Part shown: one piece after another, positions 1 to 23,760 of the stretch
Numbering within the stretch: the stretch's first letter is position 1
How the letters are laid out: each line of letters begins with the position of its first letter
From: a virus
Lineage: Duplodnaviria; Caudoviricetes
IMG/VR virus record: IMGVR_UViG_3300043394_000460
Coordinates: 1 to 27,638 of that record
Reading direction: 5' to 3' (one strand)
DNA: 27,638 bases
Made by a program: the position numbers and the translations under genes
The notes under the pieces: generated by a model
The model's database searches: none
Told to the model about the DNA's origin: nothing
Seen by the model: the letters and a program-made list of their open reading frames with translations, nothing else

Positions 1-600
1 ATGGTTGATATCAGAGATGCTTTTTTTCAATCAGATCCTTTTAAATATATTGCAAATTGTAAAAAAGATATTATTGTAAATGAGGAACCTATACCCCATC
101 GTTTAATCCCATGGTGTTATGAAATGTTTGAAAAAATGTATAATAAAGAGGTAATGGAAAAATTTATGGATAGACCTGTTTATTGTGCAGGAGTTGTAGG
201 AGGTAAAGCAAAAGAACTTTCAATATTATGTCGTCAAATTTATAATGAATCCATTAGAGTGGGACTTACAAATATAGACCAACATTTATTAAACTATTTT
301 ATACATACGGATAGTTATAAAAATAATGTTTTTTTTGGTACTGAAAAAATGCCTTTTGCAACTCATTTAAATACACAGCGTGGATTTTGGAGAGAACAAG
401 ATACTTCATATAAAGATGAAGAAATGATTTTACCATTAGCAACATTAAGAGATAATAAAGTGATAAATTCAGATGGTGAAGAATTTGCAATTGTACATCA
501 ATATGATCGTGTAACTGAATGGATTCCTATTCTTCAAACACAATTTATGACTGATACTAATATATCAATTGCACTTGCTAAACATCAAATAGGAGTTTAA
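1..600 (+). CDS. GT-A fold glycosyltransferase, probably 5'-truncated by the window edge
   Basis: D-x-R-D-x-F-F-Q motif (DIRDAFFQSDPF), CAGVVGG, DQxxxN and C-terminal IVHQYDR, as seen in phage GT-A enzymes. The ORF starts at base 1. Confidence 0.7.
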   Translation: MVDIRDAFFQSDPFKYIANCKKDIIVNEEPIPHRLIPWCYEMFEKMYNKEVMEKFMDRPVYCAGVVGGKAKELSILCRQIYNESIRVGLTNIDQHLLNYFIHTDSYKNNVFFGTEKMPFATHLNTQRGFWREQDTSYKDEEMILPLATLRDNKVINSDGEEFAIVHQYDRVTEWIPILQTQFMTDTNISIALAKHQIGV

Positions 601-611
601 TTTAAATAATT

Positions 612-1367
612 ATGAATAAGGAAATTGCTAATTTTTTTTGGATGGGGATGTTAAGCGAATTAGAAAAATCATCAATAAATTCTTTCAAAAAAAATGGATT
701 TGAAATAAGATTTTGGTCTTACGATAATATTAAAATAGATGGGATTGAAGTGTTGAATGCTTCCGAAATTTTAAAATTAGAAGAATATAAAGATATTTCA
801 CAATTTAGTGAATTAATTGGATGGGATAATAAAGCAATTATATCTGATATTTTTAGATATAAAGTTTTATCTTATGAAGATTCATGGTGGTTTGATTGTG
901 ATGTCTTTTGTTTAAAAAATCAAGAATGGTTTTTTAACTTAAGAAAAGAAAAAGGACATGGTGAATTTATTGCAGGGTATCAATCACCAGATCATGTATA
1001 TCCAATTAATGGAGCTTGTTTATTTTTAAATAAACAACATGCAGAAAATTTATTTTTAAGATCGGCTTATATTTTAGAAAAATATAAAAATAAAATTCCT
1101 CATTGGGGTGAATTGGGACCTAAATTAATAAGTGAATATGTTGTTGAAAATAACTTATTTGATATGTGTGTTGATAGAAGTTATTTTTATGAAATTCTTG
1201 GTAGAGATGTTGATATGTTTTTAAATCCATCAAGAATTTCTGAAGCTTTAAGAAGAACTAAAAAAAGTTACGCTAGTCATGTTTGGGATTCACATTTAAT
1301 TAAATTAAACGTAGATAAGAATAATATAACTCAAGATAATTTTTTAAAGTATCTTATGTACAGATAA
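612..1367 (+). CDS. GT32-like (alpha-1,4-glycosyltransferase / capsule synthesis type) DxD glycosyltransferase
   Basis: FW..G..S..E..SI.SF N-terminus, SDIFRY..L....WWFDCD (DxD) and WGELGPKL. Confidence 0.75.
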   Translation: MNKEIANFFWMGMLSELEKSSINSFKKNGFEIRFWSYDNIKIDGIEVLNASEILKLEEYKDISQFSELIGWDNKAIISDIFRYKVLSYEDSWWFDCDVFCLKNQEWFFNLRKEKGHGEFIAGYQSPDHVYPINGACLFLNKQHAENLFLRSAYILEKYKNKIPHWGELGPKLISEYVVENNLFDMCVDRSYFYEILGRDVDMFLNPSRISEALRRTKKSYASHVWDSHLIKLNVDKNNITQDNFLKYLMYR

Positions 1368-1374
1368 AAATATT

Positions 1375-1518
1375 ATGAAAAATTTACTTATTACAGTTTG
1401 CTCAAATTACGTTTATGATAACATATTTCCTTGGATTACAAGTGCTATAAAGTATTGTAAGAATACCGATATTTTAATTTTTATAAATAAAAATGATCGT
1501 AACACGATAAAAAAATAA
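1375..1518 (+). pseudogene. 47-codon probable N-terminal remnant of a GT-A glycosyltransferase
   Basis: Not in the ORF track. Reads MKNLLITVCSNYVYDNIFPWITSAIKYCKNTDILIFINKNDRNTIKK*, resembling the usual N-terminus of the family of ORF 1..600, and stops right after an A8 run. Confidence 0.45.
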
Positions 1519-1546
1519 AATAAGATGAATTGTTAAAACATTTAAT

Positions 1547-1554
1547 TAAATTTG
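1547..1554 (+). promoter_or_regulatory. Bacteroidota-type -7 promoter element (TAAATTTG) upstream of the GT9/sulfation operon
   Basis: Matches TAnnTTTG, intergenic, 27 nt before ATG 1582. No clear -33 element. Confidence 0.5.
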
Positions 1555-1581
1555 TAAAAAAACTAATTTAAAATAAAAACC

Positions 1582-2469
1582 ATGGAAAAATATTCAATAT
1601 TCCACATTGATGGAGGTATAGGAAAACATATAGCTGCTACAGCTGTAGCTAGATGTATTAAGAACAACCATCCAGACAGGAAGCTCATAGTGGTTTGTGC
1701 TTGGCCTTCTCCCTTTCTAAACCTAGACTTTATAGATAGGGTGTATAGCAGCTCTGCCACCCCTTATTTCTATCAGGATTATATAGAAGGAAAGGATTCT
1801 TTGATATTCAAACATGAGCCCTATTTTACAGCAGAACACATTCACGGTCAACTTCCACTTATTGAGAACTGGTGCAAACTGTATCAGCTTGAATACAATG
1901 GAGAAGAGCCTGAACTAGAGTTTAACCTGAGAGAAAAGCAACTAGCTAATGTTTTGTGGCAACCCACTAAGCCTATGTTACTCCTTCAGACATCAGGAGG
2001 AATGTTTGGTCAAGAGAATGCTGTTAGATATAAGTGGACAAGAGACATGCCCATTTCTGTAATGCAGGCTGTTTACGAAGAGTTTCGTCATGATTATGAT
2101 ATATTTCAGGTGACAAGACCTGGTGCTATTGCTATTGGTGGTGTTAATGTTATTGATAAGCAATACGGTATAATGGAGCTCATGACCATCCTTCTGAGAA
2201 GTGAGAAGAGATTGTTAATTGATTCATGCTTACAGCATGGTGCTGCTGCTTTAGGGTTACAGTCTACTGTGTTGTGGGTTGGAACCAATCCTAATATATT
2301 TGGTTACAAGATGCATAATAATATTATAGCCAATCAAAAACCTGAGTTCAAACTTCCTGATAGTTACTTATTTAATTATAACTTTGAAGGAACAACACAC
2401 GAGTGTCCTTATAAAGATGAGTCAGAGATGTTTGATGTGGACAATATTATAAACCAACTAAAAGGATAA
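1582..2469 (+). CDS. GT9-like (heptosyltransferase-like, GT-B) glycosyltransferase
   Basis: N-terminal GGIGK (GxGD-like) and C-terminal IDSCLQHGAAALG...TVLW (DSgxxHxAaAlg motif). Confidence 0.65.
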   Translation: MEKYSIFHIDGGIGKHIAATAVARCIKNNHPDRKLIVVCAWPSPFLNLDFIDRVYSSSATPYFYQDYIEGKDSLIFKHEPYFTAEHIHGQLPLIENWCKLYQLEYNGEEPELEFNLREKQLANVLWQPTKPMLLLQTSGGMFGQENAVRYKWTRDMPISVMQAVYEEFRHDYDIFQVTRPGAIAIGGVNVIDKQYGIMELMTILLRSEKRLLIDSCLQHGAAALGLQSTVLWVGTNPNIFGYKMHNNIIANQKPEFKLPDSYLFNYNFEGTTHECPYKDESEMFDVDNIINQLKG

Positions 2470-3287
2470 TGGAAAAACTATTTTATCAAAGTTCTCTACC
2501 AAGAGCAGGATCTACATTATTGCAGAACATCTTAGCTCAGAACCCAGACATATATGCTACACCCACAAGTGGTGTGTTAGAACTAGTGTTTGCCGCAAGA
2601 GCTAACTACACTAATTCTCCTGAGTTCAAAGCACAAGAGTCAGAACTTATGAAAAAAGGCTTTCAAGCTTTTTGTCATGAAGGGATGAAGGGATATTATG
2701 AAGCTATTACAGACAAAAAATATGTAATAGATAAGAGCAGGGGATGGGGGATTCATTATGGCTTCCTCAATTTCATTAATCCAGAGCCTAAGATAATATG
2801 CATGGTGAGAGACCTGCGTGACATCTTTGCAAGCATGGAGAAGAATTATAGAAAGAATCCTGATAAGCAGGATGATATTCTAGACTGGTCTAAGATGCAA
2901 GGAACAACAGTTCCTAAACGTATAGATATATGGGCACAGTCTCAACCTGTAGGACTTGCTATCGAAAGGTTGGGAGAGATACTTAGGATGGGAATAGACA
3001 GTAAAATGTTGTTTGTTAAGTTTGAAGATTTGTGTTTACATCCTGAATCAGAAATTATACGCATCTACAACTATCTAGGCATTCCTTATTTTAAGCATGA
3101 TTTTGATAACGTAGAGCAAGTGACTAAGGAAGATGATGAAGTGTATGGAGCATTTGGTGACCATGTTATTAGAACTAAGGTGGAACCTGTTCCTTCAAAA
3201 GCAAAACAGTTGCTTGGAAGAGATGTGACAGATTGGATATGGAGCAATTACAAATGGTTCTTTGACTACTTTAAATATATAAAATGA
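2469..3287 (+). CDS. PAPS-dependent sulfotransferase
   Basis: 5'-PSB loop SLPRAGSTLL, 3'-PB motif VRDLRDIFAS, and KFEDL..HPE. Confidence 0.9.
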   Translation: MEKLFYQSSLPRAGSTLLQNILAQNPDIYATPTSGVLELVFAARANYTNSPEFKAQESELMKKGFQAFCHEGMKGYYEAITDKKYVIDKSRGWGIHYGFLNFINPEPKIICMVRDLRDIFASMEKNYRKNPDKQDDILDWSKMQGTTVPKRIDIWAQSQPVGLAIERLGEILRMGIDSKMLFVKFEDLCLHPESEIIRIYNYLGIPYFKHDFDNVEQVTKEDDEVYGAFGDHVIRTKVEPVPSKAKQLLGRDVTDWIWSNYKWFFDYFKYIK

Positions 3288-3754
3288 TAATAGTATTATT
3301 TGGTCAGCCTCATTGTGGTAAGTCCACGCTTGCTGATATTCTTACAGTTAAACTTCCTGCAGATAATATCGATGGAGATGATTTGAGAGAGTTGTTCAAA
3401 AACAAAGATTACAGCAGAGAGGGTAGGATTAAGAATCTCAATCGTGCAAGTGATATAGCACATTACATCAATCACAAGAATGAAGACTATGTGCACGTCG
3501 TGCTATCTCTAGTATATCCATACAAGGAAGCTAGAGACTACCTGAATAGCCTTACAGAGGATGTGGTTTGGGTCTATCTCACTTATGAAGGAGAAAGAGG
3601 AAGAGAAAACTTTCATGTAAAAGATTTTGAGATTCCTACAGAAGAGCGTATATTGCACCTTGATACATCCAAAACAGATGTGTCAGAATGTATAAATCAA
3701 ATATTAACTTATGCAAAACTTCCTAGCCAAAGCAGCAGCTCCCTCGTCTTCTAA
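3284..3754 (+). CDS. cysC: Adenylylsulfate (APS) kinase-like protein, short form
   Basis: P-loop GQPHCGKST, IDGDDLR and YSREGRIKNL, typical of CysC. ATGA overlap with the sulfotransferase. Confidence 0.75.
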   Translation: MIIVLFGQPHCGKSTLADILTVKLPADNIDGDDLRELFKNKDYSREGRIKNLNRASDIAHYINHKNEDYVHVVLSLVYPYKEARDYLNSLTEDVVWVYLTYEGERGRENFHVKDFEIPTEERILHLDTSKTDVSECINQILTYAKLPSQSSSSLVF

Positions 3755-4109
3755 TTCAAAGATGTATTCAATGTTTATTGGTAGATGGCAACCTTGGCAT
3801 GCTGGTCACAGGTGGCTAATTGATCAAAGGTTGAATGAAGGAAAGAATGTTTTATTGTGTATTAGGGATGTTGAACCAGATGAAAAGAATCCTTTCACAG
3901 CTAGTGAAGTGGAAGCTAATATTAAGAAAGAACTTTGGCAGCTTGTAGGTGAGGAACGAGTGAAGGTGATCATCATCCCTGATATTGAGTCTGTTAACAT
4001 TGGTAGGGGTATAGGGTATGATGTTATAGAACATGTTCCTCCTGCAGAGATACATGATATATCTGCTACAAAGATTCGTGAACAAATGAAAGCTGAGGGT
4101 AAACTATGA
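3711..4109 (+). CDS. HxGH nucleotidyltransferase (cytidylyltransferase-like), candidate minimal ATP sulfurylase
   Basis: FIGRWQPWHAGH, NPF and ISATKIRE motifs. The substrate is inferred only from context. Confidence 0.75.
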   Translation: MQNFLAKAAAPSSSNSKMYSMFIGRWQPWHAGHRWLIDQRLNEGKNVLLCIRDVEPDEKNPFTASEVEANIKKELWQLVGEERVKVIIIPDIESVNIGRGIGYDVIEHVPPAEIHDISATKIREQMKAEGKL

Positions 4110-4339
4110 CAGATGTTAAGATAAGGTATAACACACTATGTAAAGACAACCATAGTTTTTGGAGAATTCTAATCAATGGTGTAGAACGTGTATGTTCTAA
4201 CATTGTGGTGGAGATTCCCATGCATACAACTCGTGACTTTGTTTATGATCCTAATAGAGGAGAAATGGTAGATAAACACCACTTTAGCTGTCAGGCTAAT
4301 GAGGTAATTTGGAAAGGAGACGTAGTTATAATAAAATGA
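4106..4339 (+). CDS. Hypothetical protein
   Basis: 77-aa ORF coupled by ATGA overlaps on both sides. Confidence 0.65.
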   Translation: MTDVKIRYNTLCKDNHSFWRILINGVERVCSNIVVEIPMHTTRDFVYDPNRGEMVDKHHFSCQANEVIWKGDVVIIK

Positions 4340-4551
4340 TAATAGAAAAGAAAAGACACTTAGCTAAGGCTATCTCTTATAGAATAATTAGCACACTCAT
4401 TGGATTCATTGCTATGTGGGCTGCTACCAACTCTATTAAAGTTGGAGCAGCTTTTAGCATAGCAGAACTAATTTGGAAACCTATACAATATTATTTCCAT
4501 GAGAGGATTTGGTATCGATGGATAAAATTTGGTCTAAAAGAACAGAAATAA
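4336..4551 (+). CDS. DUF2061-like small membrane protein
   Basis: KRHLAKAISYRIIST...YYFHERIW signature. Start placed at ATG 4336 (ATGA overlap). Confidence 0.8.
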   Translation: MIIEKKRHLAKAISYRIISTLIGFIAMWAATNSIKVGAAFSIAELIWKPIQYYFHERIWYRWIKFGLKEQK

Positions 4552-5629
4552 CATCTTGTGCCGTTATTGATTTTTGACACTCAAGAAATCTAGATGTGTT
4601 CTTATGTACAGGACACCAATTCCAATCTCCTTTGTCAAACTTAAAGTTAGGATTGTTCCAACATCCATAACACACTGTTTTCTTAACAGGACGTACACAT
4701 TTAAATTCATGCCACTCTTCTGAGAAGTTAGCAATCATCACTACAGGTCTACCCATAGCCCAAGCTAACCAACTTAATCCAGAGCTCAGTCCTATGAAAA
4801 AGTGACTATGAGCAATCGCATCCATAGCGCTTTGTAAAGACTTATCATCTAGAGGTTGACAGTTCTCAAATGGATTTTCTTCTTTAGAAACATTTATTAT
4901 TGTATACCCTAACTTATGTAGGAATGTAATCACATCTTGCCAAGCTTCCCTTGTCCAAAACTTACAGGCAGCTGTAGAATTGGTAGCTATTGTAACCACT
5001 TTTGAATTATAGCTTGTTTTTTGATAATGCATGATTCTAGGTCTTAATTCTTTATATTCAAGCCCTAGAATGTTTGTAGCTGTTTGTTGTAATGGTATTG
5101 TATTTGGTAGCACTGGTTCCATGCTATCTTTGTAAAACCATCCTAGATCATACTTTGCGTACAGATTATCAACTGATTCACCTGGTTTAATAAATGTGAG
5201 TTCTGGATAAGCTTCTTCAAATAGAAAGTTTTTAAATGTCCTTACGAAGACATTACAGTTGTGCTTATTTTTAAATTCTAGTGCATATGGCACCCATGCT
5301 ATTGTATCTCCTAAGGAAGAACTATCAAATGATATTAATACATTCTTATCCTTAGCATTGTATGTAACATTAGAAATTAGTGTGTCGTTCTCATACACCT
5401 CAATTCTCCACTTAATGAAATATTTAATTGCTGTTCTGGCCCACGAATTATTCTGGATTTCTGTTTTATATATTACAACTCCTGTATCATCATTAATAAA
5501 CTTTACTGTATATTTCTTCACTTCAGAACCTAAGATTTCTACAAAAGCACCGTCTGTAAAGTTGTAATGTATCTTGTTCTTTACAACGACAATTGGTGAG
5601 AGGGTTTTCTTCAGATTATTATATATCAT
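4481..5629 (-). CDS. Aah/TibC-like (autotransporter strand-loop-strand) protein O-heptosyltransferase
   Basis: SSSLGDTIAW, FIGLSSGLSWLAWA...PVVMI..FS and the four-Cys set CYGCWN...WCPVH...ECQKSIT. Confidence 0.8.
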   Translation of the reverse strand: MIYNNLKKTLSPIVVVKNKIHYNFTDGAFVEILGSEVKKYTVKFINDDTGVVIYKTEIQNNSWARTAIKYFIKWRIEVYENDTLISNVTYNAKDKNVLISFDSSSLGDTIAWVPYALEFKNKHNCNVFVRTFKNFLFEEAYPELTFIKPGESVDNLYAKYDLGWFYKDSMEPVLPNTIPLQQTATNILGLEYKELRPRIMHYQKTSYNSKVVTIATNSTAACKFWTREAWQDVITFLHKLGYTIINVSKEENPFENCQPLDDKSLQSAMDAIAHSHFFIGLSSGLSWLAWAMGRPVVMIANFSEEWHEFKCVRPVKKTVCYGCWNNPNFKFDKGDWNWCPVHKNTSRFLECQKSITAQDVISVLLDQILSIDTKSSHGNNIV

Positions 5630-6555
5630 TTTTTCAACAGTTTTAATAACAAATTCTTATTTTCATTAACATCTTCAGTGATATATGTCACCTGAGGGTT
5701 ATTATCATACATGTCTAAATAGGTGTGTAGCTTTCTAAACATGCAGGGAAGACCGTGTCCCAATGCTTCTTTAATTGATATTGGAGAGAGTTCAAATTTG
5801 GACGGGAAGTAGAACAGATCAGCTGCAGAATAGAATGTTTCTACATCGTGACGTTCTCCCCAGACAATACAGTTATCTGGCTTATTTGCCATTAGAGGCT
5901 CCCAATATTCCTTAAAATTGCCAGCCTGATTACCTACAAAGTGGAACAAGATGTTCTCATCCTTCAGTTGTCTAGCTATCTCAAACAGCTCAGCTTGATT
6001 CTTGCCAGGGGTAAATAATCCCATATGAAGGACATGTTTAACACTATCATCCAGTCCCAACATCTTTCTAGCTCTACTCTTGTCAACCACGTGATTGATA
6101 ATAGGATATTCCCAGACATCAGAATCAATCCCTAAATGAGCAAATCTTTGCCTGCTCCATTCAGAAACAAATACATATCTGTCTGGATGGTAGTAGATCT
6201 TGTCTGGATCTGTATAAGAACTGTGTGTAGTGACTACATTGAAGTGAGTTCTGTCGTCAGCAAACAGTTTGTCTAAGATTCTTGTGTGTAGAAAATCCTG
6301 AGGAATCTCCTGATAATGGATGATGTCTGGCTGGTAGTGCTCTACATATCTAAGGATCTCGTCCTGATATTCGAAATGGTGCACTGTGAAAAACTTGCTG
6401 ATTTTATTCTTTTGGACGACAAACAGGTCTCCTCCAGAGTTGGTAACATCAATGACTTCTATGTCATGTTCTGCTCCAAAATGCATTGCCTGTTGATATA
6501 AATATTGAGGCATTCCTCCTGTGGATAAGTGGGGTGCAATGTATAGAATTTTCAT
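5626..6555 (-). CDS. GT4-family (GT-B) glycosyltransferase
   Basis: PHLSTGGMPQY, GLFTPGKNQ and FPSKFELSPISIKEA (E-x7-E motif). Confidence 0.85.
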   Translation of the reverse strand: MKILYIAPHLSTGGMPQYLYQQAMHFGAEHDIEVIDVTNSGGDLFVVQKNKISKFFTVHHFEYQDEILRYVEHYQPDIIHYQEIPQDFLHTRILDKLFADDRTHFNVVTTHSSYTDPDKIYYHPDRYVFVSEWSRQRFAHLGIDSDVWEYPIINHVVDKSRARKMLGLDDSVKHVLHMGLFTPGKNQAELFEIARQLKDENILFHFVGNQAGNFKEYWEPLMANKPDNCIVWGERHDVETFYSAADLFYFPSKFELSPISIKEALGHGLPCMFRKLHTYLDMYDNNPQVTYITEDVNENKNLLLKLLKK

Positions 6556-9185: not shown

Positions 9186-9839
9186 ATGGCAATACCTTCT
9201 AGGCAAATAGGTTGGGGCCCACAAGAAAATCTTTTGTGGCAAATCTCAAAACAACTTGAACAGTTGGGTTGTGGGATTTCTAATGCTGGTATTCCAGGTC
9301 CTCCAGGTCCTCAGGGCCCAATGGGTGTTTCTGGTTTATTTGCTCAAACAGGCAACAGCACTGTTATTACTAATACAACAGTAGAAACATCGTTGATTAA
9401 TGGTGGTGTAGGTACACTGTCTGTACCAGCTAACGGATTTAACGTTGGTGATAGTTTTAGAGCGATTGTTGGCGGTATTGTGAACGCTAATAATAATCAA
9501 ACTCTAAGAATTAGAGTTAAGGCAGGATCTATTGTTCTTTTGGACAGTGGTATTCAAAACCTTGGAAGTAGTGTTATAAATGATGTATTTTCTATAAACG
9601 TTGATTTTACCATTAGACAACTTGGAGCTGCAGGTGTGGCATCACTTGTTGCATTAGGAAGTTTTCATTATACAAAAACTAACAATGCTTCTGTTCAGGG
9701 ATTTGGTTTTAACACTGTTAACACCACTACATTTGATACAACAATTAGCAACACATTAGATATCACTGTTGAATGGGGTACTGCTAGCACAGGAAACAAC
9801 ATATATAGTGACATATTTATACTAAATAAAACATATTAA
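9186..9839 (+). CDS. Putative virion fibre/decoration protein with short collagen-like linker
   Basis: N-terminal module MAIPSR...LLWQISKQLEQL, G-X-Y repeats GIPGPPGPQGPMG, then a Gly/Asn/Thr-rich beta-type domain. Confidence 0.65.
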   Translation: MAIPSRQIGWGPQENLLWQISKQLEQLGCGISNAGIPGPPGPQGPMGVSGLFAQTGNSTVITNTTVETSLINGGVGTLSVPANGFNVGDSFRAIVGGIVNANNNQTLRIRVKAGSIVLLDSGIQNLGSSVINDVFSINVDFTIRQLGAAGVASLVALGSFHYTKTNNASVQGFGFNTVNTTTFDTTISNTLDITVEWGTASTGNNIYSDIFILNKTY

Positions 9840-9841
9840 AA

Positions 9842-9985
9842 ATGGCAATACCATCAAGACCACTCAGTCAAGATCCACAATCTCAGCTCCTTTGGAACAT
9901 CTCCAAGCAGCTTGAGCAATTAATTGGATTGGTAGGTAAGTTAGCAAACACTACAACAACTACCACGACTACAACAGCACCATAA
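9842..9985 (+). CDS. 47-aa paralog of the 9186 N-terminal module with a poly-Thr tail
   Basis: Not in the ORF track. MAIPSRPLSQDPQSQLLWNISKQLEQLIGLVGKLANTTTTTTTTTAP*. Confidence 0.85.
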   Translation: MAIPSRPLSQDPQSQLLWNISKQLEQLIGLVGKLANTTTTTTTTTAP

Positions 9986-9988
9986 TTT

Positions 9989-10027
9989 TTTTGCACAAAG
10001 GAGCAGAAAATGCTACCTTTCGCAAAA
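9989..10027 (+). promoter_or_regulatory. Imperfect hairpin overlapping a promoter-like sequence upstream of the HNH gene
   Basis: TTTTGC-ac-AAAGG-AGCA-gaaaa-TGCT-a-CCTTT-c-GCAAAA. TTTG 9990-9993, 20-nt spacer, TACCTTTC (one mismatch to TAnnTTTG). Confidence 0.5.
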
Positions 10028-10038
10028 TTTAACTACAT

Positions 10039-10848
10039 ATGAAGGAATTAAAGTATATCTGTGCAGAAGAATGGAGAGATATTCCTGATTTTGAAGGTTA
10101 TCAAGTTAGTAATCTTGGTAATGTTAGAAATAAACAGTTAAAACAATTAAAACAAATTTCTAACAAACGAGGCTATCTTTAGGTTAGATTTAGAAAACAA
10201 GGAAAATCTACACCAAGAGTTATTCACAGGCTTGTTGCTAAAATATTCTTAGAGAACCGAAAAAACTATACTCAAGTTAATCATATAGATGGAAATAAAA
10301 GAAATAACTGTGTAGAAAACTTAGAATGGGTTAATAATTCAATGAATCAAAAACATGCATATTTTCTTGGTTTACAACCGAGTAGAGCAGGTGAAAGAAA
10401 TATTAAAGCCACTATAAAAAATAAAGATGTAGATACTCTAAAGGAATTTTATAACTCAGGAAAAACCATAAAAGAAATATCTAACGTTACAGGAATAGGA
10501 TTATCAATTGTCAGGAATATAATATATGGTAAAGCTTGGAAAGATAACACTACTGATGTAGTTAAAAGAGATGATAGGTTAGTCAAATCTACTGAATCAG
10601 TACAAAAGGCAATTAGAACAAAACAGTCTAAAGGTATGTTTGGAGTATCGATTGTACAACTATCAAAAGATAATAAAGAACTAAATAGATTTAGAAGTAT
10701 AAATGACGCATCTATAAAAACAGGCATACCTAGAAAAAGTATAGAAGCTGTTGTTCATGAAAAAGAGTTTTACTCAAAAGATAAATCTAAAAGCTGGAAA
10801 ATGACAGAAGCTGGTGGATATATCTGGAAAAAAAATATAAACCAATAA
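10039..10848 (+). pseudogene. NUMOD4-HNH homing endonuclease with C-terminal HTH/NUMOD1-like domains, interrupted by an in-frame TAG at 10180-10182
   Basis: EEWRDIPDFEGYQVSNLGNVR (NUMOD4), GYL*V, IHRLVA, QVNHIDGNKRNNCVENLEW (HNH). In frame with track ORF 10342..10848. Confidence 0.85.
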
Positions 10849-10856
10849 TAAAATTC

Positions 10857-11876
10857 ATGAAAAAACAATTATTTTACATTACAGCTTGCCCTGACGATAC
10901 GTATTATACATGGCAAGTGCATTTGTGGCTAGAAAGCCTGAGAAACAGAGGTGAATCACATAAGGCTATTGTCTTGATATTCATCCCTAGTTTTAGAGAA
11001 CAAAATCCTAAATGGGAAAAGATTATAGATCTTTACCCAGAAGCTGAGTTTCATTTTTACAAAGACTCTCACGACATTAGTCAGCTATTAGGAATCTACA
11101 TTCCAACACTGCGTCCTTATGTTCTCTGGAGATACTTCAAAGATCATCCTGAAAGATCAGCAGATGCTATTATGTATTGTGATTCTGATGTGTTCTTCAC
11201 TGAGAAATTTGACATCAGTAGCTTTATAGAGGATGATATTTGTTATTTATCAGATACAAATAGCTACATAAACTCTGACTACTTCGACAGCAAGGTGAAT
11301 CAAGTGTTACCTGAAAAGCTAGAAGTATATAAGCAGAGAGATATACTTGGTGAATTAGCTAGTCTTGTTGGTATCAGCAGAGAGATTGCTGAAGCTAACA
11401 AAGAACATTCAGGAGGAGCTCAATACTTGTTAAAGAATATTGATGCAGCTTTCTGGAACAAAGTGATGAATGATTGCCTATTGATACGTAGGTATCTGCA
11501 GAATGTGAACAAAGAGTTCTTCAAAGATGAGAACACTGGATTCCAAAGCTGGTGTGCTGATATGTGGGCCGTGCTATGGAACTTATGGGCAAGAGATAAG
11601 GAAGTCTTAGTGATTCCAGAAATGGGATTCTCTTGGGCTCCAGATCCAATCACAAAGCTAGAGACACACCCAATCCTTCATAATGCAGGAATTGTAGGTG
11701 AGCAAATGGATGGATATGCATGCTTCTATAAGGGTACATACCATACAGGTATAGATCCAACCAAGGACGGTCACTTAGACAAAGTGTTAAATGATGAAAA
11801 GTCTAAGACAAGATGCACCTGGTACTATACCAATGAACTTAAAAAATTATATAACAAATATCAGTTAAATTATTAA
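10857..11876 (+). CDS. GT-A glycosyltransferase resembling plant hydroxyproline O-arabinosyltransferase / peptidyl-serine galactosyltransferase (GT95/GT96)
   Basis: YYTWQ near the N-terminus, YCDSD (DxD), GGAQY, and WCADMWA resembling the W..EMY.Y motif as I recall it, followed by ILHNAG. Confidence 0.55.
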   Translation: MKKQLFYITACPDDTYYTWQVHLWLESLRNRGESHKAIVLIFIPSFREQNPKWEKIIDLYPEAEFHFYKDSHDISQLLGIYIPTLRPYVLWRYFKDHPERSADAIMYCDSDVFFTEKFDISSFIEDDICYLSDTNSYINSDYFDSKVNQVLPEKLEVYKQRDILGELASLVGISREIAEANKEHSGGAQYLLKNIDAAFWNKVMNDCLLIRRYLQNVNKEFFKDENTGFQSWCADMWAVLWNLWARDKEVLVIPEMGFSWAPDPITKLETHPILHNAGIVGEQMDGYACFYKGTYHTGIDPTKDGHLDKVLNDEKSKTRCTWYYTNELKKLYNKYQLNY

Positions 11877-11877
11877 A

Positions 11878-12585
11878 ATGAAAGATTATAACGGTATTGT
11901 TAATTACAATGACTCTGAAGATGATTACATGATTTATATAATGTACTCTACAGATCCTTCTGATAAAAGTATTTATATAGGTGTTACTGAAGATTATAAA
12001 CAACGAATTAAAAAGCATTCAGATGGAAGAAAAAGAAAAATGTATAAAGATAAACCTTTATACACTTGGATGAATAATGTTATAGATGTTATGAACTTAA
12101 AAGTGGTCTTTGAAATATTAGAAAAAAACTTAAGTTCGGATGATGCTTTTTTAAAAGAAGAAGAATATATAAAACTCTATAAAAATTTAAAATACAATGT
12201 TTTAAATTTAACAAATGGTGGAAAAGGAGTTAAAGGTAAATCTCCTTGGAATAAAGGAAAAGTTGGAGTTTATTCTAAAAATCATTTAAAAAAACTATCT
12301 AATTCAAATAAAGGAAAAGTTTCACCAATGAAAGGGAAAACTCTTTCATTTGAAAGAAGAAAGCAAGTATCAGAAAATAATAAAGATAGAGTAGGTAAAG
12401 AATGGAACAATCCTTTAAGAAGAAATATACTAAAATACTCTTCGGAAATGCAATTAGTTGATATATACCATTCATTAAAACATGCTTCAATTTCTGAAAA
12501 AGTACACCCTGCATCAATTGGCAAATGGTGTAGAGGTGAGAATCAACCGAAAAACGGATTTATATATAAATATGAAAACAAATAA
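11878..12585 (+). CDS. GIY-YIG homing endonuclease with NUMOD3/NUMOD1-like tail
   Basis: MIY...IYIGVT...RIKKH, E..YI, NLTNGG.G, PWNKGK repeats and GFIYKY. Confidence 0.88.
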   Translation: MKDYNGIVNYNDSEDDYMIYIMYSTDPSDKSIYIGVTEDYKQRIKKHSDGRKRKMYKDKPLYTWMNNVIDVMNLKVVFEILEKNLSSDDAFLKEEEYIKLYKNLKYNVLNLTNGGKGVKGKSPWNKGKVGVYSKNHLKKLSNSNKGKVSPMKGKTLSFERRKQVSENNKDRVGKEWNNPLRRNILKYSSEMQLVDIYHSLKHASISEKVHPASIGKWCRGENQPKNGFIYKYENK

Positions 12586-12615
12586 ATTTATTCATTAATA
12601 TTAAATTAAATTAAA

Positions 12616-12819
12616 ATGAGCTCTAATCAGAGACCTTTAAAAGGTTTTGTGCGTGTTGATGGATCAGGACGCATAGTAGGCGGAAGTCTAATTCTTAGAA
12701 GAAAGATGCCTAAAGTGGGTAAATGGATTGAAATTCCAGCATATGAGTGCTGCAACCCAACCACAACTACAACAACAACAGTAGCGCCTACTACTACAAC
12801 AACCACAACCATAGGATAA
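12616..12819 (+). CDS. Small protein with C-terminal poly-Thr (mucin-like) tail
   Basis: ...YECCNPTTTTTTTVAPTTTTTTTIG*, using mixed Thr codons. Confidence 0.8.
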   Translation: MSSNQRPLKGFVRVDGSGRIVGGSLILRRKMPKVGKWIEIPAYECCNPTTTTTTTVAPTTTTTTTIG

Positions 12820-12825
12820 TAACGT

Positions 12826-13233
12826 ATGGCAAAATCATTATTTCCAGAGGAAATGATTAAATCTAGCAGTGAAATGTCCTTAGAGTCTATCGCTGCTAGA
12901 TTGACCTATTTTCACGAGCAGTTACATCTGCTTCATTGGCAGACCACTAGTTATGCAGAGCACAAAGCTTTGGGAAAATTGTATGAATATATACAGGATT
13001 TCAAAGATGGTGTTATTGAAAAGCTTATGGGCTACATGAATAAACGTCCTGGCGTTTATAAAATTGAACCTCTTATAAACTGTACAAGTAATGAGTGTGT
13101 TTCAAATCTTTTATCATTTGCTTCAAACCTAAAGAGTTTTGCAAACAGTAATGGCTACCATGACATTGGTAACCTTGCAGATGCTCTATCTGGAGAAGCA
13201 GCTAAAACACGTTATCTATTAACACTTAGTTAA
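12826..13233 (+). CDS. Ferritin/Dps-like four-helix protein (DUF5856-like)
   Basis: QLHLLHWQTTSYAEHKALGKLYE...D..IE, C-terminal YLLTL. Confidence 0.75.
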   Translation: MAKSLFPEEMIKSSSEMSLESIAARLTYFHEQLHLLHWQTTSYAEHKALGKLYEYIQDFKDGVIEKLMGYMNKRPGVYKIEPLINCTSNECVSNLLSFASNLKSFANSNGYHDIGNLADALSGEAAKTRYLLTLS

Positions 13234-13528: not shown

Positions 13529-13774
13529 ATGGCAACGTACGATCCAAACAAGAAGTACACATGGACTCCTCAAGACGAATTCACTCTTAGTGGAGCAGAG
13601 TTCGGACTATTATTAAACAGCTTCAGAGCAATCCTTAGTACAGAACAAGCTCAACAAGTGTTATTAGCTAACAGAGCTAATGAAGTGGTGGAAGCAATTC
13701 TAGCCAGAGCAGTTGAGAATGATGTTGTAAAAGAAGCACAAACACCTTCTACAGATGGCAAAGCAAATGATTAA
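13529..13774 (+). CDS. Hypothetical protein
   Basis: 81-aa ORF with an A-rich start context. Confidence 0.7.
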   Translation: MATYDPNKKYTWTPQDEFTLSGAEFGLLLNSFRAILSTEQAQQVLLANRANEVVEAILARAVENDVVKEAQTPSTDGKAND

Positions 13775-13922
13775 ACGTAAAGACGGAAGTGTTTCACAAC
13801 GTGGATTGTGGGATAATTTAAGGAAAAAAGCAGCTCAGAATAAAAAGACTGGCGCTAAACCTAAGGCTCCTACAAAAGCCATGATAGCTCAAGAAAAAAA
13901 GATAAAAGCTAAAGAAAAATGA
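13755..13922 (+). CDS. 55-aa Lys-rich basic protein
   Basis: Not in the ORF track. MAKQMIKRKDGSVSQRGLWDNLRKKAAQNKKTGAKPKAPTKAMIAQEKKIKAKEK*. Fills the gap and has an ATGA overlap with the next gene. Confidence 0.75.
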   Translation: MAKQMIKRKDGSVSQRGLWDNLRKKAAQNKKTGAKPKAPTKAMIAQEKKIKAKEK

Positions 13923-14143
13923 TATATGAACCTAGAAATAGGATTGATGTATCTACACCAAAAGGTGATGGTGTAATATGGTTGGTTACAGACTACGGTC
14001 ATGAAACAGATACTATTTACACTGTGATCATAAATGCTACAGGTGAAATGTGGCAATTCACACACAAGGATATCATTGTTAAATCTAATATAACATTTAG
14101 AAGAAATGGCAACAACAAAAAAGACAGCAGCTTGGACTCGTAA
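13919..14143 (+). CDS. Hypothetical protein
   Basis: 74-aa beta-rich ORF in the operon. Confidence 0.65.
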   Translation: MIYEPRNRIDVSTPKGDGVIWLVTDYGHETDTIYTVIINATGEMWQFTHKDIIVKSNITFRRNGNNKKDSSLDS

Positions 14144-14387
14144 AGAAGGTAAGAATCCTTCTGGAGGACTTAATGCTAAAGGTGTTGCTTCTTATAGAAA
14201 ACAAAACCCTGGCTCTAAGTTAAAGATGGCTGTAACAACTAAACCTTCTAAACTAGATCCTGACAGTAAACCTGCTAAGAGAAGAAAGAGTTTTTGTGCT
14301 CGCATGTCTGGTGTAAAAGGTCCTATGAAAAAACCAAACGGTAAACCTACAAGGAAAGCTTTAGCGTTGCGTAAATGGAATTGTTAA
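14106..14387 (+). CDS. Basic phage protein (DUF6321-like)
   Basis: WTRKEGKNPSGGLNAKG..SY...NPGSKLK...RRKSFCARM...LRKWNC. Confidence 0.7.
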   Translation: MATTKKTAAWTRKEGKNPSGGLNAKGVASYRKQNPGSKLKMAVTTKPSKLDPDSKPAKRRKSFCARMSGVKGPMKKPNGKPTRKALALRKWNC

Positions 14388-14406
14388 ACTTATAAATCAT
14401 AATACA

Positions 14407-14706
14407 ATGGCAAAAATAAAAAAAGCCCAAATGGGAGCTGGTGTTCCTAAGGGTAAAGCAAAAACTGAAATGGGCAAAACTGTTGATAAAAAAGAGTTTA
14501 TGGCCAGACAAGATTCTATGGCTAAAGCTATGGATAAACAACGTGCTTCTTTAGGTAAGAAGAAGATGAAGAATGGTGGTAAGGCTAAATCTTTCCCAGA
14601 CCTTAATAAGGATGGTAAAGTGACTAAGGCTGACATTCTTAAAGGTCGTGGTGTCATCGCTAAGAAAGGCGCTAGTATGAAGAAATGTAAATACGGCTGC
14701 AAGTAA
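14407..14706 (+). CDS. Lys/Met-rich basic protein with an EF-hand-like loop
   Basis: FPDLNKDGKVTKADIL (DxNxDG loop) embedded in K-rich sequence. Confidence 0.75.
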   Translation: MAKIKKAQMGAGVPKGKAKTEMGKTVDKKEFMARQDSMAKAMDKQRASLGKKKMKNGGKAKSFPDLNKDGKVTKADILKGRGVIAKKGASMKKCKYGCK

Positions 14707-14843
14707 TGAAATCAGGAAAACCTAAGAAGGCCCCAAAGGTTATCAACCCTAAGCCCAATCAAAACTTCATGAGGGAATCAGACGTTATTCGTAAACGTAC
14801 TAGTCCTCAACAACCTATGAAAGGTAAAAGACTTTCTAAATAG
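14706..14843 (+). CDS. 45-aa Lys/Pro-rich basic peptide
   Basis: Not in the ORF track. MKSGKPKKAPKVINPKPNQNFMRESDVIRKRTSPQQPMKGKRLSK*. TAATG coupling, ends at the terminator. Confidence 0.7.
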   Translation: MKSGKPKKAPKVINPKPNQNFMRESDVIRKRTSPQQPMKGKRLSK

Positions 14844-14947: not shown

Positions 14948-15481
14948 CTATTTTCTTAATGCATTGTACACTGACAATGTCTGATCTATGTATTTGTAAT
15001 TCTTACTCTTGAGCCAACATTCATGAGCAAACAGTCCATCTGCATCATACCTCTGCAGGTTCCATCTAGAGTTTCCTAATAAGGAAACATCCATGATAAA
15101 GTTGTGTGAATCGATGTTATTTAATGTTACACTTATTCCCATTAACCTTAATATTCCTGAAGGAAATATTTGTTTGAATGATGCAAAGTCTGCATCTAGA
15201 TCCTTTATAGCATCCCATAAGTCTGGGTGTATTACAGTATCATCATCATTGAAATATATCCAACCATTTTCTACAAGATCTAATGCAAAGTTTCTCTGCG
15301 CATTACCAGATATGCTGTTCTTATCAATTACTGAATAGCATTCAGCTTGTGCTGGCTTGTTTTCAGGAATTGGTCCATCAAACACAACTATCCATCTGTA
15401 TTTAGGAAAGTTGATACTTTTAGCTATCTCTTCTAGGTTCTCTGGACGAGAACATGGTGTGATGATATTAATCAACTTCAT
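14948..15481 (-). CDS. GT-A glycosyltransferase with GT43 (glucuronosyl/xylosyltransferase)-like motifs
   Basis: ITPCSR, WIVV.D, QRNFAL and IYFNDDD parallel GT43 ITPT..R, W.VVED, QRN.AL and YFADDD. It could instead be a divergent GT2. Confidence 0.65.
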   Translation of the reverse strand: MKLINIITPCSRPENLEEIAKSINFPKYRWIVVFDGPIPENKPAQAECYSVIDKNSISGNAQRNFALDLVENGWIYFNDDDTVIHPDLWDAIKDLDADFASFKQIFPSGILRLMGISVTLNNIDSHNFIMDVSLLGNSRWNLQRYDADGLFAHECWLKSKNYKYIDQTLSVYNALRK

Positions 15482-16118
15482 TTCTGTATAAGATTAAGAG
15501 TTTATCATTGTCCCATCCTGGAGAATGTTTAAAAATATGTTCTGTCATTACAAATGTAGCTGAGCTGTAATAAGCAGAAAGCTCATTAAGCTGTTCTGCA
15601 TATTGTTGCTCAGAAGCATTTCTGAATATATCCTCAATAACAAGAATACCACCAGGTTTTAAGAACTTAGTAGCAATCTTTGCAAATCTTATTTGATCAG
15701 CAAACTCATGTGTGCTGTCTTCAACAATAATATCAAACTTACAACCAGCTCCTTCAAGAGAAACTTGAATAGACTCTTCAGCCTTTACATTCATATAATG
15801 ATATTCAGTGTTCTGAAGGTTATCAATCACCGCTTTAGTAAGTCTGTTGTGATCATATTCAAATCCATACAATTTAGCATGTGGAAAGTATTCTCTCCAG
15901 CACATCATAGATTTGTTATCTAGAATGCCTATCTCAGCTATTTCTAGGTACATATATCGTAATGGACCAAAGATAAAATCATATACAGCAGTGTAGGGAT
16001 GTTTGTGTAGTGTAGAATTTGTATTGTATGGAGATTTATCTGTACCATACAACTTCCCTAACATACAAAGATCTGTAATTGAATCACTAGAATCAATTAC
16101 AATTTTATTTATTTTCAT
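15468..16118 (-). CDS. Class I SAM-dependent methyltransferase, probable sugar O-methyltransferase
   Basis: YGTDK, EIGI, WREYFP.A, FDIIVEDSTH, LKPGGILVIED. Lies between two glycosyltransferases. Confidence 0.8.
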   Translation of the reverse strand: MKINKIVIDSSDSITDLCMLGKLYGTDKSPYNTNSTLHKHPYTAVYDFIFGPLRYMYLEIAEIGILDNKSMMCWREYFPHAKLYGFEYDHNRLTKAVIDNLQNTEYHYMNVKAEESIQVSLEGAGCKFDIIVEDSTHEFADQIRFAKIATKFLKPGGILVIEDIFRNASEQQYAEQLNELSAYYSSATFVMTEHIFKHSPGWDNDKLLILYRNEVD

Positions 16119-16857
16119 TGAATCGTTTTAACATGTCTACATAATCGTGTTTCCAATTAGGGTTGAGTTGGATTTCACCTGTAGGAATCTTTCCTTGGGC
16201 CCTTAGGTTCTCTATATGAAGACTATGTCTTTGTATAACATTAGGCTGACCAGGTTTGTCATGTCCTTGTCCAGACATGTGATAACTACGTCCTCCCCAC
16301 ATATAAAACCAACTAGCTTCGTGCTTTGGTGGATTAGCAAACAACTTTCCTCCATAAGCATGTAGATTCTGTATGAAGGTCATATCATATCCAGCATTCT
16401 CAATAGGATGGTGTCCAACAGCTTCCCATGCAGACTTTCTGAATACAACACCAGAATTCCCTATCCATGTAATATCTGTAATAGAATTACCATTATAGAA
16501 TACACCAGGATTCCAATGTAGAATATTCACATCATCTGTGAAATACTTAGCTACATTGTTAAGATGCCACGGCATAGCTACATCATCATCATCCCATTGA
16601 CAGATAATATCACCTCTACATAAGTCTGTAGCGTAATTTTCTTTCTCTCCAATTGTTCCAAATGTAAAATCCATATTATGGATTCTCACTTGGGGATGAT
16701 CAAACCTAAGTTTTTGTAAGGGATAGTCATTAACTATAACCAGCTCACAAAGATCAGCAGGGTAGTCCTGCTTGAGGAAAGAGTTTAAGCTCTCCTCAAG
16801 CATTTCCACTCTACCGTAAGTTATGCACTTTGCTGATATAAACGGTAATTTACTCAT
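16105..16857 (-). CDS. GT2-family glycosyltransferase
   Basis: ITYGR..LEESL.SFL.QDY, ELVIVND, WDDDD. Confidence 0.85.
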   Translation of the reverse strand: MSKLPFISAKCITYGRVEMLEESLNSFLKQDYPADLCELVIVNDYPLQKLRFDHPQVRIHNMDFTFGTIGEKENYATDLCRGDIICQWDDDDVAMPWHLNNVAKYFTDDVNILHWNPGVFYNGNSITDITWIGNSGVVFRKSAWEAVGHHPIENAGYDMTFIQNLHAYGGKLFANPPKHEASWFYMWGGRSYHMSGQGHDKPGQPNVIQRHSLHIENLRAQGKIPTGEIQLNPNWKHDYVDMLKRFNENK

Positions 16858-18142: not shown

Positions 18143-18385
18143 TTAATATTTAAGCGTTAATACTTTCACTACATTCATTTGTGCATTTAGGATTTCTCCT
18201 ACTGCGTGACTGAACAATCGCTGACTAAACTGCGATTGAGGCTGATTGTCATTGTGGTCATTTAATAAATCTGCTAACTCAGCGCATAGCTCTTTAGCTC
18301 TCTGCACTTTTGGATCATTACTGGGATTGAATGTTAGTCCTACTAACTTCTCTCCAAACGTCATTTCTCTTGTTGTTTGTTCCAT
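18143..18385 (-). CDS. Acb2/Tad1-hairpin-like small helical protein (candidate immune-signal sponge)
   Basis: TFGEKLVGLTFNPS.D..V..AK..CAELAD and RL...A...I..AQM..VK..T helical-hairpin pattern. Confidence 0.5.
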   Translation of the reverse strand: MEQTTREMTFGEKLVGLTFNPSNDPKVQRAKELCAELADLLNDHNDNQPQSQFSQRLFSHAVGEILNAQMNVVKVLTLKY

Positions 18386-18735
18386 TATAATTGGTTTTTT
18401 AAACTGTGAATTACTTGTTTGAATAAATAATCTTTTGCTTTTTGCTCTGTAGGAAGCTGTTCATAAGGAACATAGCAAGGATGTTCTTTAGTCTCAGGAT
18501 TCTTCACTGGACCATACTTCCATCCTTCTTCTTCTTTCTGTTTTAACCAGCTGTTGTGAGAAGCGTCTGGACCTGCATTTGGGTTTTCTAAATGAAACTT
18601 AACACCTTGAATAGCAGAACTCTTCTGCCATTCTGGAGCATTTTCCCATGTAGGTTGACTGTTATCTCCAATAGCTTCGCAATAAGCTTTGTTGATTTCA
18701 TGTGCAACTTGTGCAACATTTTCAATTGACATCAT
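18385..18735 (-). CDS. RyR-domain protein
   Basis: HNSWLKQKEEEGWKYGPVKNPETKEHPCYVPYEQLPTEQKAKD matches the ryanodine-receptor repeat motif. Start at 18735 or 18732. Confidence 0.85.
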   Translation of the reverse strand: MMSIENVAQVAHEINKAYCEAIGDNSQPTWENAPEWQKSSAIQGVKFHLENPNAGPDASHNSWLKQKEEEGWKYGPVKNPETKEHPCYVPYEQLPTEQKAKDYLFKQVIHSLKNQL

Positions 18736-18745
18736 ATTATTGGTT

Positions 18746-19405
18746 TTAATTTCCATACTCATAATCAAGTATCTTACCTACAAGGTCACTTCTGTGATTC
18801 TCCTTGAGTTTAATCCACTTGATTTCTTTAATCTTTTTAGATAGCTCGATGACATAACTTAGTCCTGTCATGCTATCTCTTGTATCCTGCTGCTCGTTAT
18901 CTCCATTGATAACAATCTTACCAGTCTTGCCTAATCGTGTTAATATGGCCAGCATCTCTGCCTTTGTAAGGTTTTGTGCTTCTTCCACAATCAACAGGTC
19001 ATCAACAGTCTTTCCACGAATGAATTGCACTGGTAGGGCTTTCACCTTACCATCTTGGATTAGTTTCTCCACTTCTTTCTTATCTGTACAACACTTGTTT
19101 AAGTTTTCTACAAATGCTTCCATGTATGGATCAAACTTCTCACTCAATGCTCCAGGCAGAAATCCAAGGCTTTTACCCACTTCAATAGCTGCTCTGGTGT
19201 TATAGATGCAATCAATTTGCTTCTTCTTAAGGAAGTCTAATGCTGCCTGGGCACACACTAGTGATTTACCACAACCAGCTCTTCCTGTAATTATAACTAT
19301 TTGATTCTCAATGATTAAGCGTTTTGCTTCTTTCTGTTCTTCATTAAGCTGTATAGCATTGATAGATTTAATGTCTGCTTTACGCTCTCTATTGGGCTCT
19401 CTCAT
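18746..19405 (-). CDS. phoH: PhoH-family ATPase
   Basis: GRAGCGKS, LGFLPG, FIRGKT, VEEAQN, LTRLG, GD..Q.D. Confidence 0.93.
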   Translation of the reverse strand: MREPNRERKADIKSINAIQLNEEQKEAKRLIIENQIVIITGRAGCGKSLVCAQAALDFLKKKQIDCIYNTRAAIEVGKSLGFLPGALSEKFDPYMEAFVENLNKCCTDKKEVEKLIQDGKVKALPVQFIRGKTVDDLLIVEEAQNLTKAEMLAILTRLGKTGKIVINGDNEQQDTRDSMTGLSYVIELSKKIKEIKWIKLKENHRSDLVGKILDYEYGN

Positions 19406-23275: not shown

Positions 23276-23296
23276 CATAATGTTCAATCAAGTTCG

Positions 23297-23758
23297 TTAC
23301 TCTTGATCAGAATCTTTTGGAATATTTTTTATTATCCAATTTGCAAATGATATTAATTCTTCTTCAGTGGCGTGACTTTTCATCATATTTGCTAAATGAC
23401 TAATCACTTGTATGTTATCTTTAGTATAGCCCTTTTTTGAATCTTTTCTATCTAAAGCAGGAGAGTTTTTCTGACCTCCTGATGCTCCACTTTTACAAAC
23501 TAATTCTGTTCCTAGAATTGGACAATGTTTTGGTATAATAATATCTTTAACAGTTAAATTGAAGTCTAATCCTTTTTGTTTGGCTCTTCCTTTTGCTCTT
23601 TGAAACATTTTTGATTCAGGACTTGTACACTTTACTCGTTCTGAGTTACACTTGTTACAAAGAGTTACTGTTTTAGAGGTTTTAAGAAACATTGCACCAC
23701 AATTAGTACATTCTCGTTCTGTCTCTGATATTTTATAACCTTCTCGATTTATTCTCAT
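23297..23758 (-). CDS. Intron-encoded HNH-type homing endonuclease
   Basis: CxxC..CxxC, CPILG, PALDRKDSKKGYTKDNIQVISHLANMMK. Lies within the intron, 3' of P9. Confidence 0.9.
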   Translation of the reverse strand: MRINREGYKISETERECTNCGAMFLKTSKTVTLCNKCNSERVKCTSPESKMFQRAKGRAKQKGLDFNLTVKDIIIPKHCPILGTELVCKSGASGGQKNSPALDRKDSKKGYTKDNIQVISHLANMMKSHATEEELISFANWIIKNIPKDSDQE

Positions 23759-23760
23759 AG

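Follow-up and report, generated by a model that had tools for sequence, protein, structure and literature searches.

What would a tailed phage do with a glycosyltransferase-like gene lying between two very small genes whose products end in runs of threonine (Thr)? This question is raised by positions 9,186 to 12,819 of IMG/VR record IMGVR_UViG_3300043394_000460, from which a stretch of 27,638 nucleotides (hereafter the window) was analysed; it is a fragment of an uncultured phage, 24% complete. Four genes are in question: a fibre-like protein (9186-9839), mini-protein A (9842-9985), the putative transferase, called here the enzyme (10857-11876), and mini-protein B (12616-12819). All four open reading frames, and two endonuclease genes among them, were found where a sequence-only reading had put them. 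That reading had proposed a phage system in which an HPAT/SERGT-like transferase glycosylates poly-Thr acceptor proteins. Our data indicate that the pair formed by the enzyme and the Thr tag is real, conserved and well supported. The activity of the enzyme is predicted: judging from its fold model, its conserved site and the co-segregation of gene and tag, the phage quite probably encodes in it a protein O-glycosyltransferase that acts on poly-Thr tags of virion proteins.

The enzyme carries the motifs YYTWQ (residues 16-20), D109-S-D111 and WCADMW (232-237) and matches the unannotated PHROG 4417 (E 7e-56). It gave no match in Pfam, NCBIfam or a sequence search of the PDB; NCBIfam matched none of the four proteins (9186, 9842, 10857, 12616), and PDB sequence searches with the enzyme and its family profile returned nothing meaningful. 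Its predicted structure (pLDDT 93.7, pTM 0.91) has a single Rossmann-like GT-A fold. The top Foldseek matches of the model were UGGT, glycogenin and alpha-1,3-galactosyltransferase (E 6e-7 to 4e-5), and VIA-align placed Skp1 galactosyltransferase (Z 13.8, root-mean-square deviation 3.7, 217 aligned residues), UGGT and glycogenin (both Z 13.6) and LgtC (Z 13.4) in the top rows, which are tied; all of the top 15 are glycosyltransferases, and no DNA-modifying enzyme was found among the listed fold matches. The TM value for glycogenin was 0.45. Glycogenin, LgtC, UGGT and Skp1 galactosyltransferase, which we take to be GT8/GT24-like retaining GT-A enzymes, resemble the enzyme in predicted fold (Z 13-14), DxD and C-terminal His, and differ from it in sequence (8-12% identity, no Pfam match) and in their unrelated acceptor context. 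The DxD follows a core strand (104-107) and a metal-binding His lies towards the C-terminus, as in GT-A enzymes. In an alignment of 78 homologues, which are 30-49% identical to the enzyme, Y81, D109, D111, Q230, F258, H275 and K292 are invariant, and position 235 is D or E in 77; the DxD/His/Lys site is therefore conserved throughout. The glycosyltransferase identity suggested earlier is thus borne out at the level of a predicted GT-A fold, which is nearest to protein- and glycan-acting transferases, and catalysis of this kind is predicted for the enzyme. The family comprises 759 clusters at 50% identity, phage and bacterial together. Among 48 longer homologues scanned, 10 had any Pfam match, and the fusion domains include GT2, GT6, GT7C, GT25, GlcNAc- and O-fucosyltransferase, methyltransferase, radical SAM and F5/8. 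In Chitinophaga sp. YR573 (L207:5054-7029) the enzyme has two tandem paralogues, preceded by a protein in which a short Thr/Ser run occurs.

The proposed likeness to plant enzymes is a different matter: a weak and remote lead survives, and membership of GT95 or GT96 is not established. In PMC8012813, plant HPAT (GT95, PF23452) and SGT1/SERGT (GT96) are described as Golgi type II membrane proteins acting on hydroxyproline (Hyp) or Ser. An Atlas language-model search related the enzyme to clusters bearing PF23452, with a score of 0.97 where 10% of the members carry it and of 0.96 where 58% do; DUF7164 scored equally there, at 0.96. With HMMER, 3/78 homologues touched PF23452, all below the cut-off; the best reached E 1.3e-4 over profile positions 9-230, with 21.9 bits against the Pfam cut-off of 23.9 bits. 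The enzyme itself did not match PF23452 at E values up to 10, and there are no GT95/96 entries among the listed fold rows of its model. Genome-level searches with PF23452 and PF23741 gave no candidate and are uninformative, since the controls were likewise unmatched. Plant enzymes initiate on runs of hydroxy-amino acids, as is predicted here for Thr runs; unlike them, the enzyme has no N-terminal type II membrane anchor and starts directly with the catalytic domain (the model begins at core strand 5-12), and its partner tags consist of Thr. The HPAT/SERGT kinship is therefore a sub-threshold lead which may point to distant common ancestry, not to membership.

Mini-protein A ends in N-T9-AP, encoded by ACT ACA ACA ACT ACC ACG ACT ACA ACA, that is, with all four Thr codons, and mini-protein B ends in P-T7-VAP-T7-IG. 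The window contains three runs of at least seven Thr codons, (ACN)7 or longer, all in the two mini-proteins, and none of 200 base shuffles produced any. In 80 related loci, adjacent Thr codons were identical in 0.355 of pairs against a random expectation of 0.349, and the run length was exactly 7, the modal length, in 185/327 runs. Adjacent codons being no more alike than chance, the runs are not slippage microsatellites; that origin is ruled out, as the mixed codons of the window had already suggested. The runs are also linked to the enzyme. A Thr-run reading frame lies within 2.5 kilobases (kb) of the enzyme gene in 79/80 related loci, and the sole miss has 0.8 kb of downstream sequence; such frames occur on both sides of the enzyme in 62 of the 71 loci that have both flanks. 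The co-occurrence proposed as a check in related phages was in this way confirmed. It should be noted that these loci are close (62-77% identical) and not dereplicated, so the linkage shows conservation and not independence.

The small proteins are built on a simple plan. The fibre-like protein and mini-protein A share a 27-residue N-terminal head, head A (19/27 identical, E 2e-11), and mini-protein A is therefore head A plus a Thr tag and nothing more. Head A is found in 73/80 related loci, with a Thr run in 88 of its 114 copies, and the head of mini-protein B (head B) in 75/80, with a Thr run in 100 of 117 copies. In relatives both heads occur either bare with a tag or followed by larger domains, and the tail length of mini-protein B varies between strains by inserted repeat units. 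The fibre-like protein matches tail-fibre PHROG 5073 (E 1e-4) and an Atlas cluster (score 0.94) in which 38% of members carry Collagen. The same heads start fibre-like proteins in relatives, and for this reason heads A and B likely dock on the virion, where both mini-proteins would then be located. In complete relatives Thr runs are also present on two further proteins, one of 391 residues, whose gene comes third after that for the capsid, and a virion protein of 2109 residues. The earlier proposal of dedicated acceptor scaffolds thus holds in its poly-Thr linkage and was too narrow in scope, as the tag is also appended to major structural proteins. Searches for the nature of these proteins gave little. 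The PDB sequence matches of head A were designed helical repeats only, and nothing meaningful was found in the PDB by sequence with the relatives' capsid, 391-residue and large virion proteins. When head B was compared by fold with viral models, only a family member matched, and neither head B nor the 391-residue protein had a meaningful match in cultured phages. A trimer prediction for head A scored 0.27 (mark 0.42) and weighs neither way.

Cultured phages provide evidence from outside this family. Distant homologues of the enzyme (26-36% identical) were found in 77 records of cultured phages, among them dairy phages and phages of Enterococcus and Staphylococcus. Thirteen were examined, and Thr tracts lay near the enzyme gene in all 13 (runs of at least 5 in 12, Thr-Gln repeats in LP65); in most cases a major capsid or tail protein bears the tract at its C-terminus. 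The phages were Lactococcus 1706 and bIL285, Enterococcus phiFL1A, 4995_1, 9183 and VPE25, Lactobacillus iLp84, Semele and LP65, Clostridium phiCTP1, Staphylococcus DH5, Arcanobacterium TPWB06 and Chryseobacterium MA9V-3, in which the runs are internal. LP65 (L354:3058-5101) has the most divergent homologue examined, and its TTTETQTQTQ repeats are on a protein annotated as structural by mass spectrometry, which suggests that tag and enzyme diverge together. In three of these phages long Thr tracts lie out of frame directly behind the stop codon of the capsid or tail-tube gene: 9183 (L188:9770-9875), VPE25 (L353:3730-3880) and TPWB06 (L355:5745-5926). The stop is preceded by C CCA AAA in 9183 (-1 frame), and CCC TAA occurs in TPWB06 (+1 frame), both of which we take to resemble known shifty sites; some of the subunits may receive the tag by programmed frameshifting. 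TP901-1, which is not a matched control, showed no (ACN)4 run in 12 kb of its sequence, and the listed matches did not include the enzyme.

A sharper comparison is provided by phages that differ in these traits. In siphophages of the Enterococcus and Lacticaseibacillus types, the search started with the structural gene and took no account of the enzyme. For the phiFL1A tail tube there were 27 relatives: a C-terminal poly-Thr tail occurred together with the enzyme gene in 12, and neither occurred in 15. Among relatives of the iLp84 capsid (70 scored of 75, five truncated genes being dropped) 37 had both and 33 neither, and both states occur among capsids 97-99% identical to the query. No discordant case was found in either set (pooled: both 49, neither 48). 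Enzyme gene and Thr tag are thus present or absent jointly.

Several points weigh against the assignment of the enzyme to the Thr tags. An adjacent tag and enzyme gene could travel as one cassette, and non-adjacent genes were scored for this reason. The capsid gene 2 kb upstream of the enzyme gave both in 12, neither in 13 and no discordance (25/27 loci), and the tail-tube gene 3 kb downstream gave both in 33, neither in 18 and discordance in 4 (55/74 loci); pooled, structural genes 2-3 kb from the enzyme gave 45, 31 and 4, and the tails of these genes too follow the enzyme, which speaks for the assignment. The four discordant cases, all at the distant tail-tube gene, count on the negative side. 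So does the small number of independent events: trees built from the gene parts without the tail require 4 changes of both traits for 27 rows and 3 for 53 close rows, about 7 in all, and the independent pairs agree in 4/4 and 2/2, with p values of 0.125 and 0.5 per tree, neither of them significant by itself, and about 0.03 for the pooled 6/6. The trees were made by FastTree, and phages recombine. Heads A and B, moreover, gave no match to a solved or named virion protein, either in the PDB sequence search or, for head B, in the fold comparison with viral models. In the reverse direction, the enzyme family was present in only 10/106 searchable viral records with an (ACN)7 run and in 2/13 of those at least 90% complete, so the tag pattern alone fails to predict the enzyme; many of the viral (ACN)7 runs are off-frame or on short fragments. 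Record G055 (74% complete, L359:11474-15320) is a siphophage whose capsid, adaptor and tail proteins and a mini-protein of 63 residues carry very long poly-Thr tails; it has GT2-, GT4- and Stealth-like genes and no enzyme family member in its 74%, and it is possibly a non-orthologous tag system. Conversely, L204, a 4.5-kb contig whose homologue is 62% identical, has no Thr run, and long runs are lacking near most bacterial homologues. An (ACN)6 run was found in only 5/22 GTDB loci of the family, and 13 of the 14 fused homologues had none within up to 6 kb on each side.

These 14 loci hold fused forms of the enzyme in Bacteroidota (479-829 residues; L211-L213, L215-L225), many of them beside export and maturation genes of RiPPs (ribosomally synthesised peptides with post-translational modification). 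Among the neighbours are a peptidase ABC transporter, LanB/LanC-like proteins, radical SAM proteins and double-glycine precursors. In Sphingobacterium detergens (L212:253-498) a pinensin-leader precursor has 13 Thr at its end, and other precursors have short Thr-rich cores. Thr is the normal dehydration substrate of lanthipeptides; the RiPP association therefore points to a peptide-acting enzyme more than to Thr glycosylation. The literature search found no function assigned to these fused homologues.

Taken at its face value, the evidence would fit the following course of events. In the host cytoplasm, before or during assembly, the enzyme with a divalent metal would transfer sugar from a host nucleotide-sugar to the Thr hydroxyls of the tags, and the tagged proteins would then assemble into a particle with a dense O-glycan coat. 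In the phage of the window the tags are carried by heads A and B; in siphophages of Firmicutes the major capsid and tail-tube proteins themselves have the tag as a fusion. Elongation and capping of the glycan chain would fall to neighbouring or fused transferases. Protection from proteases or from host-surface traps, stability and adhesion are candidates for the benefit; shielding from antibodies cannot be the reason in lake phages. In its widest form the proposal is that of a portable two-part 'glycotag': a soluble enzyme, which belongs to an undescribed family and may be distantly related to HPAT/SERGT, would recognise a run of about seven Thr on any protein. Phages would attach the tag to fibres, to the capsid or tail tube or to bare anchor peptides, in some cases by frameshifting and then on part of the subunits only, giving a mucin-like coat, while Bacteroidota would use the same domain in RiPP clusters. 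We regard the arguments for and against this wider form as evenly balanced.

Four other explanations have to be weighed. The Thr tags could be primed by another enzyme, either host O-glycosylation or a TibC-like or GT2 protein of the phage, and the enzyme of the window could be an elongating transferase. Several of the nearest solved folds (LgtC, alpha-1,3-galactosyltransferase, Skp1 galactosyltransferase and UGGT) act on sugar acceptors, the window holds other transferases, and G055 has tags and other glycosyltransferases without this family. In the head-tail modules of the small Firmicutes siphophages examined, however, the enzyme is the sole transferase-like gene among the annotated neighbours; in the adjacent-gene test its absence goes with the absence of tags, and its weak sequence leads point to the peptide-initiating HPAT. 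Elongation is therefore rather unlikely, and initiation is the predicted role. It is quite improbable that an enzyme of this same fold adds a group other than a simple sugar to the tags (sugar-phosphate, polyol-phosphate or nucleotidyl): nucleotidyltransferases and Stealth-type phosphotransferases do appear lower in the fold list (Z 9.3-10.6), and the window has APS kinase, sulfotransferase and cytidylyltransferase genes, but the top 15 VIA-align rows are all glycosyltransferases and the fusions are mainly to other glycosyltransferase domains. A third explanation keeps the mini-proteins of the window off the virion, as cytoplasmic or cell-surface glycopeptides serving as decoys or in superinfection exclusion, with only the Firmicutes versions coating particles. 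The cassette does adjoin genes of lysis and Dps-like genes and, in the relative G002, is separated by about 40 kb from the genes for head and tail; its heads lack a known structural match. The same heads nevertheless begin collagen- and fibre-like proteins, inspection by eye found no hydrophobic signal or membrane stretch in either mini-protein, and virion proteins of the same phage family also bear Thr runs, which leaves this explanation scarcely probable. That the tails are unmodified flexible linkers or microsatellite debris, with the enzyme acting on DNA, small molecules or host polysaccharide and the co-occurrence due to hitch-hiking, is hardly credible even though most (ACN)7 runs of viral contigs lack the enzyme and bacterial homologues mostly lack long runs, because codons are mixed at random, run length peaks at 7, many tails stand at the end of a protein with nothing to link, tails come and go with the enzyme in separate genes 2-3 kb apart, and the listed fold matches include no DNA-modifying enzyme. 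Glycosylation of virion Thr tags by the enzyme remains the preferred reading.

The features of the locus and of the surrounding glycan genes are collected in the table.

Table. Features of the window that bear on the predicted tag system
Feature	Position	Strand	Basis and remarks
Fibre-like protein, 217 residues	9186..9839	+	Head A (residues 1-30); Gly-X-Y triplet present three times; C-terminal domain rich in beta structure; Thr run absent
Mini-protein A, 47 residues	9842..9985	+	Head A and Thr9 tag (9950-9976); predicted acceptor
NUMOD4-HNH endonuclease, optional insertion	10039..10848	+	Pfam, PHROG; TAG interruption at 10180
Enzyme, 339 residues, soluble, predicted GT-A fold	10857..11876	+	PHROG 4417; predicted poly-Thr O-glycosyltransferase
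GIY-YIG/NUMOD3 endonuclease, optional insertion	11878..12585	+	Pfam
Mini-protein B, 67 residues	12616..12819	+	Small beta-strand head with invariant Cys-Cys, Thr7 runs at 12760-12780 and 12790-12810; predicted acceptor
Candidate glycan-tailoring genes	612..6555		Pfam: Gb3_synth-like, sulfotransferase, APS kinase, cytidylyltransferase, TibC/GT9-like, Glycos_transf_1
Two GT2-like genes and methyltransferase (candidate tailoring)	14948..16857	-	Pfam

The two endonucleases are passengers. In run X7 a close strain is represented by a 7.8-kb contig without either of them, its joints being 10065 to 10890 and 11861 to 12697; among the 80 related loci the HNH gene is upstream of the enzyme in 8 and the GIY-YIG gene directly downstream in 5. 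A role as components of the system is ruled out by this contig and this rarity. The HNH element entered after codon 9 of the enzyme gene (window 10039-10889), took over its start and gave it a replacement N-terminus, and the first nine codons of the HNH frame are the original start of the enzyme gene. The upstream endonuclease is a single frame; the codon TAG in it is GAG in run X3, another strain, so recoding of TAG is ruled out.

About 10 glycan-related genes were recognised by Pfam in the window, and those of the table are candidates for elongation, decoration or tailoring of the glycan. Dense glycan-modification clusters occupy 1-6555 and 14948-16857, with the sulfotransferase and APS kinase, GT1/GT4 and GT2 proteins, and unannotated glycosyltransferase-like frames lie at 1-600 and 1582-2469. 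A Dps/ferritin-like gene (12826-13233) directly follows mini-protein B. Small Lys-rich basic proteins, including DUF6321, are clustered at 13755-14843 and are common in uncultured aquatic phages; small genes at 18143-18768 have weak matches to Acb2/Tad1-hairpin-like and RyR domains. The ribonucleotide reductase gene (22317-24982) is divided by an endonuclease frame (23297-23758), probably an intron. Promoter and terminator scans of the window gave results at chance level. Runs from freshwater and wastewater contained sequence matching the window; in run X1, possibly the source sample, contig pieces span the stretch with at most one difference per piece, and one RNA-library run contained short pieces, by which transcription is not shown. 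Many relatives' contigs are of 100-117 kb, some with terminal repeats, and in one relative capsid, portal and terminase match PHROGs 11589, 6547 and 6681. The host is likely a member of Bacteroidota, because gene starts are AT-rich without Shine-Dalgarno sites and close homologues occur in Cytophagales and Sediminibacterium bins; these bins may themselves contain mis-binned phage contigs.

As a rule phage particles are regarded as unglycosylated; the precedent found is that of mycobacteriophages. Freeman et al. (2023) reportedly described virion glycosylation in the mycobacteriophages Che8, Corndog and Myrna. According to PMC12363180 and PMC11256854, transferases of these phages glycosylate capsid and tail-tube proteins and shield the particles from antibodies; the study is cited in PMC12582341. 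The system described here is alike in having a phage-encoded putative transferase, with capsid and tail-tube proteins as its predicted targets. It is unlike in its enzyme: when the family profile was run against 13 sequences with filters off, Che8 gp108-110 and Corndog gp35-38 reached at best 6.5 bits (E 0.5-2.5), against 112-305 bits for the controls, which gives no sign of homology. The Corndog capsid and tail-tube candidates lack a Thr tail, and the present system, which occurs in phages of Firmicutes and probably of Bacteroidota, pairs one enzyme with a repeat tag dedicated to it. Glycocins, which are glycosylated RiPPs, offer another parallel in the cytoplasmic O-glycosylation of a peptide by a pathway-encoded enzyme, as predicted here, and the fused homologues in RiPP clusters of Bacteroidota stand in a similar context; the known glycocin transferases are GT2 enzymes, unlike this family. 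No literature on phage poly-Thr tags or on the PHROG 4417 family was found in a search whose scope was outside subscription journals and supplements. What is described here is a probable form of virion glycosylation with an undescribed enzyme family, whose activity is predicted.

The cultured phages and the near-isogenic pairs with and without the trait make the system directly testable, and the enzyme may serve as a single-enzyme, tag-directed tool for O-glycosylation in the cytoplasm. If the proposal is true, PHROG 4417 would gain a function, Thr tails that are now unexplained would be explained, and the system would be predictable from a Thr tail and the enzyme gene. It would constitute a second, unrelated and widespread route to virion glycosylation, with a bearing on the antigenicity, stability and adsorption of phages.

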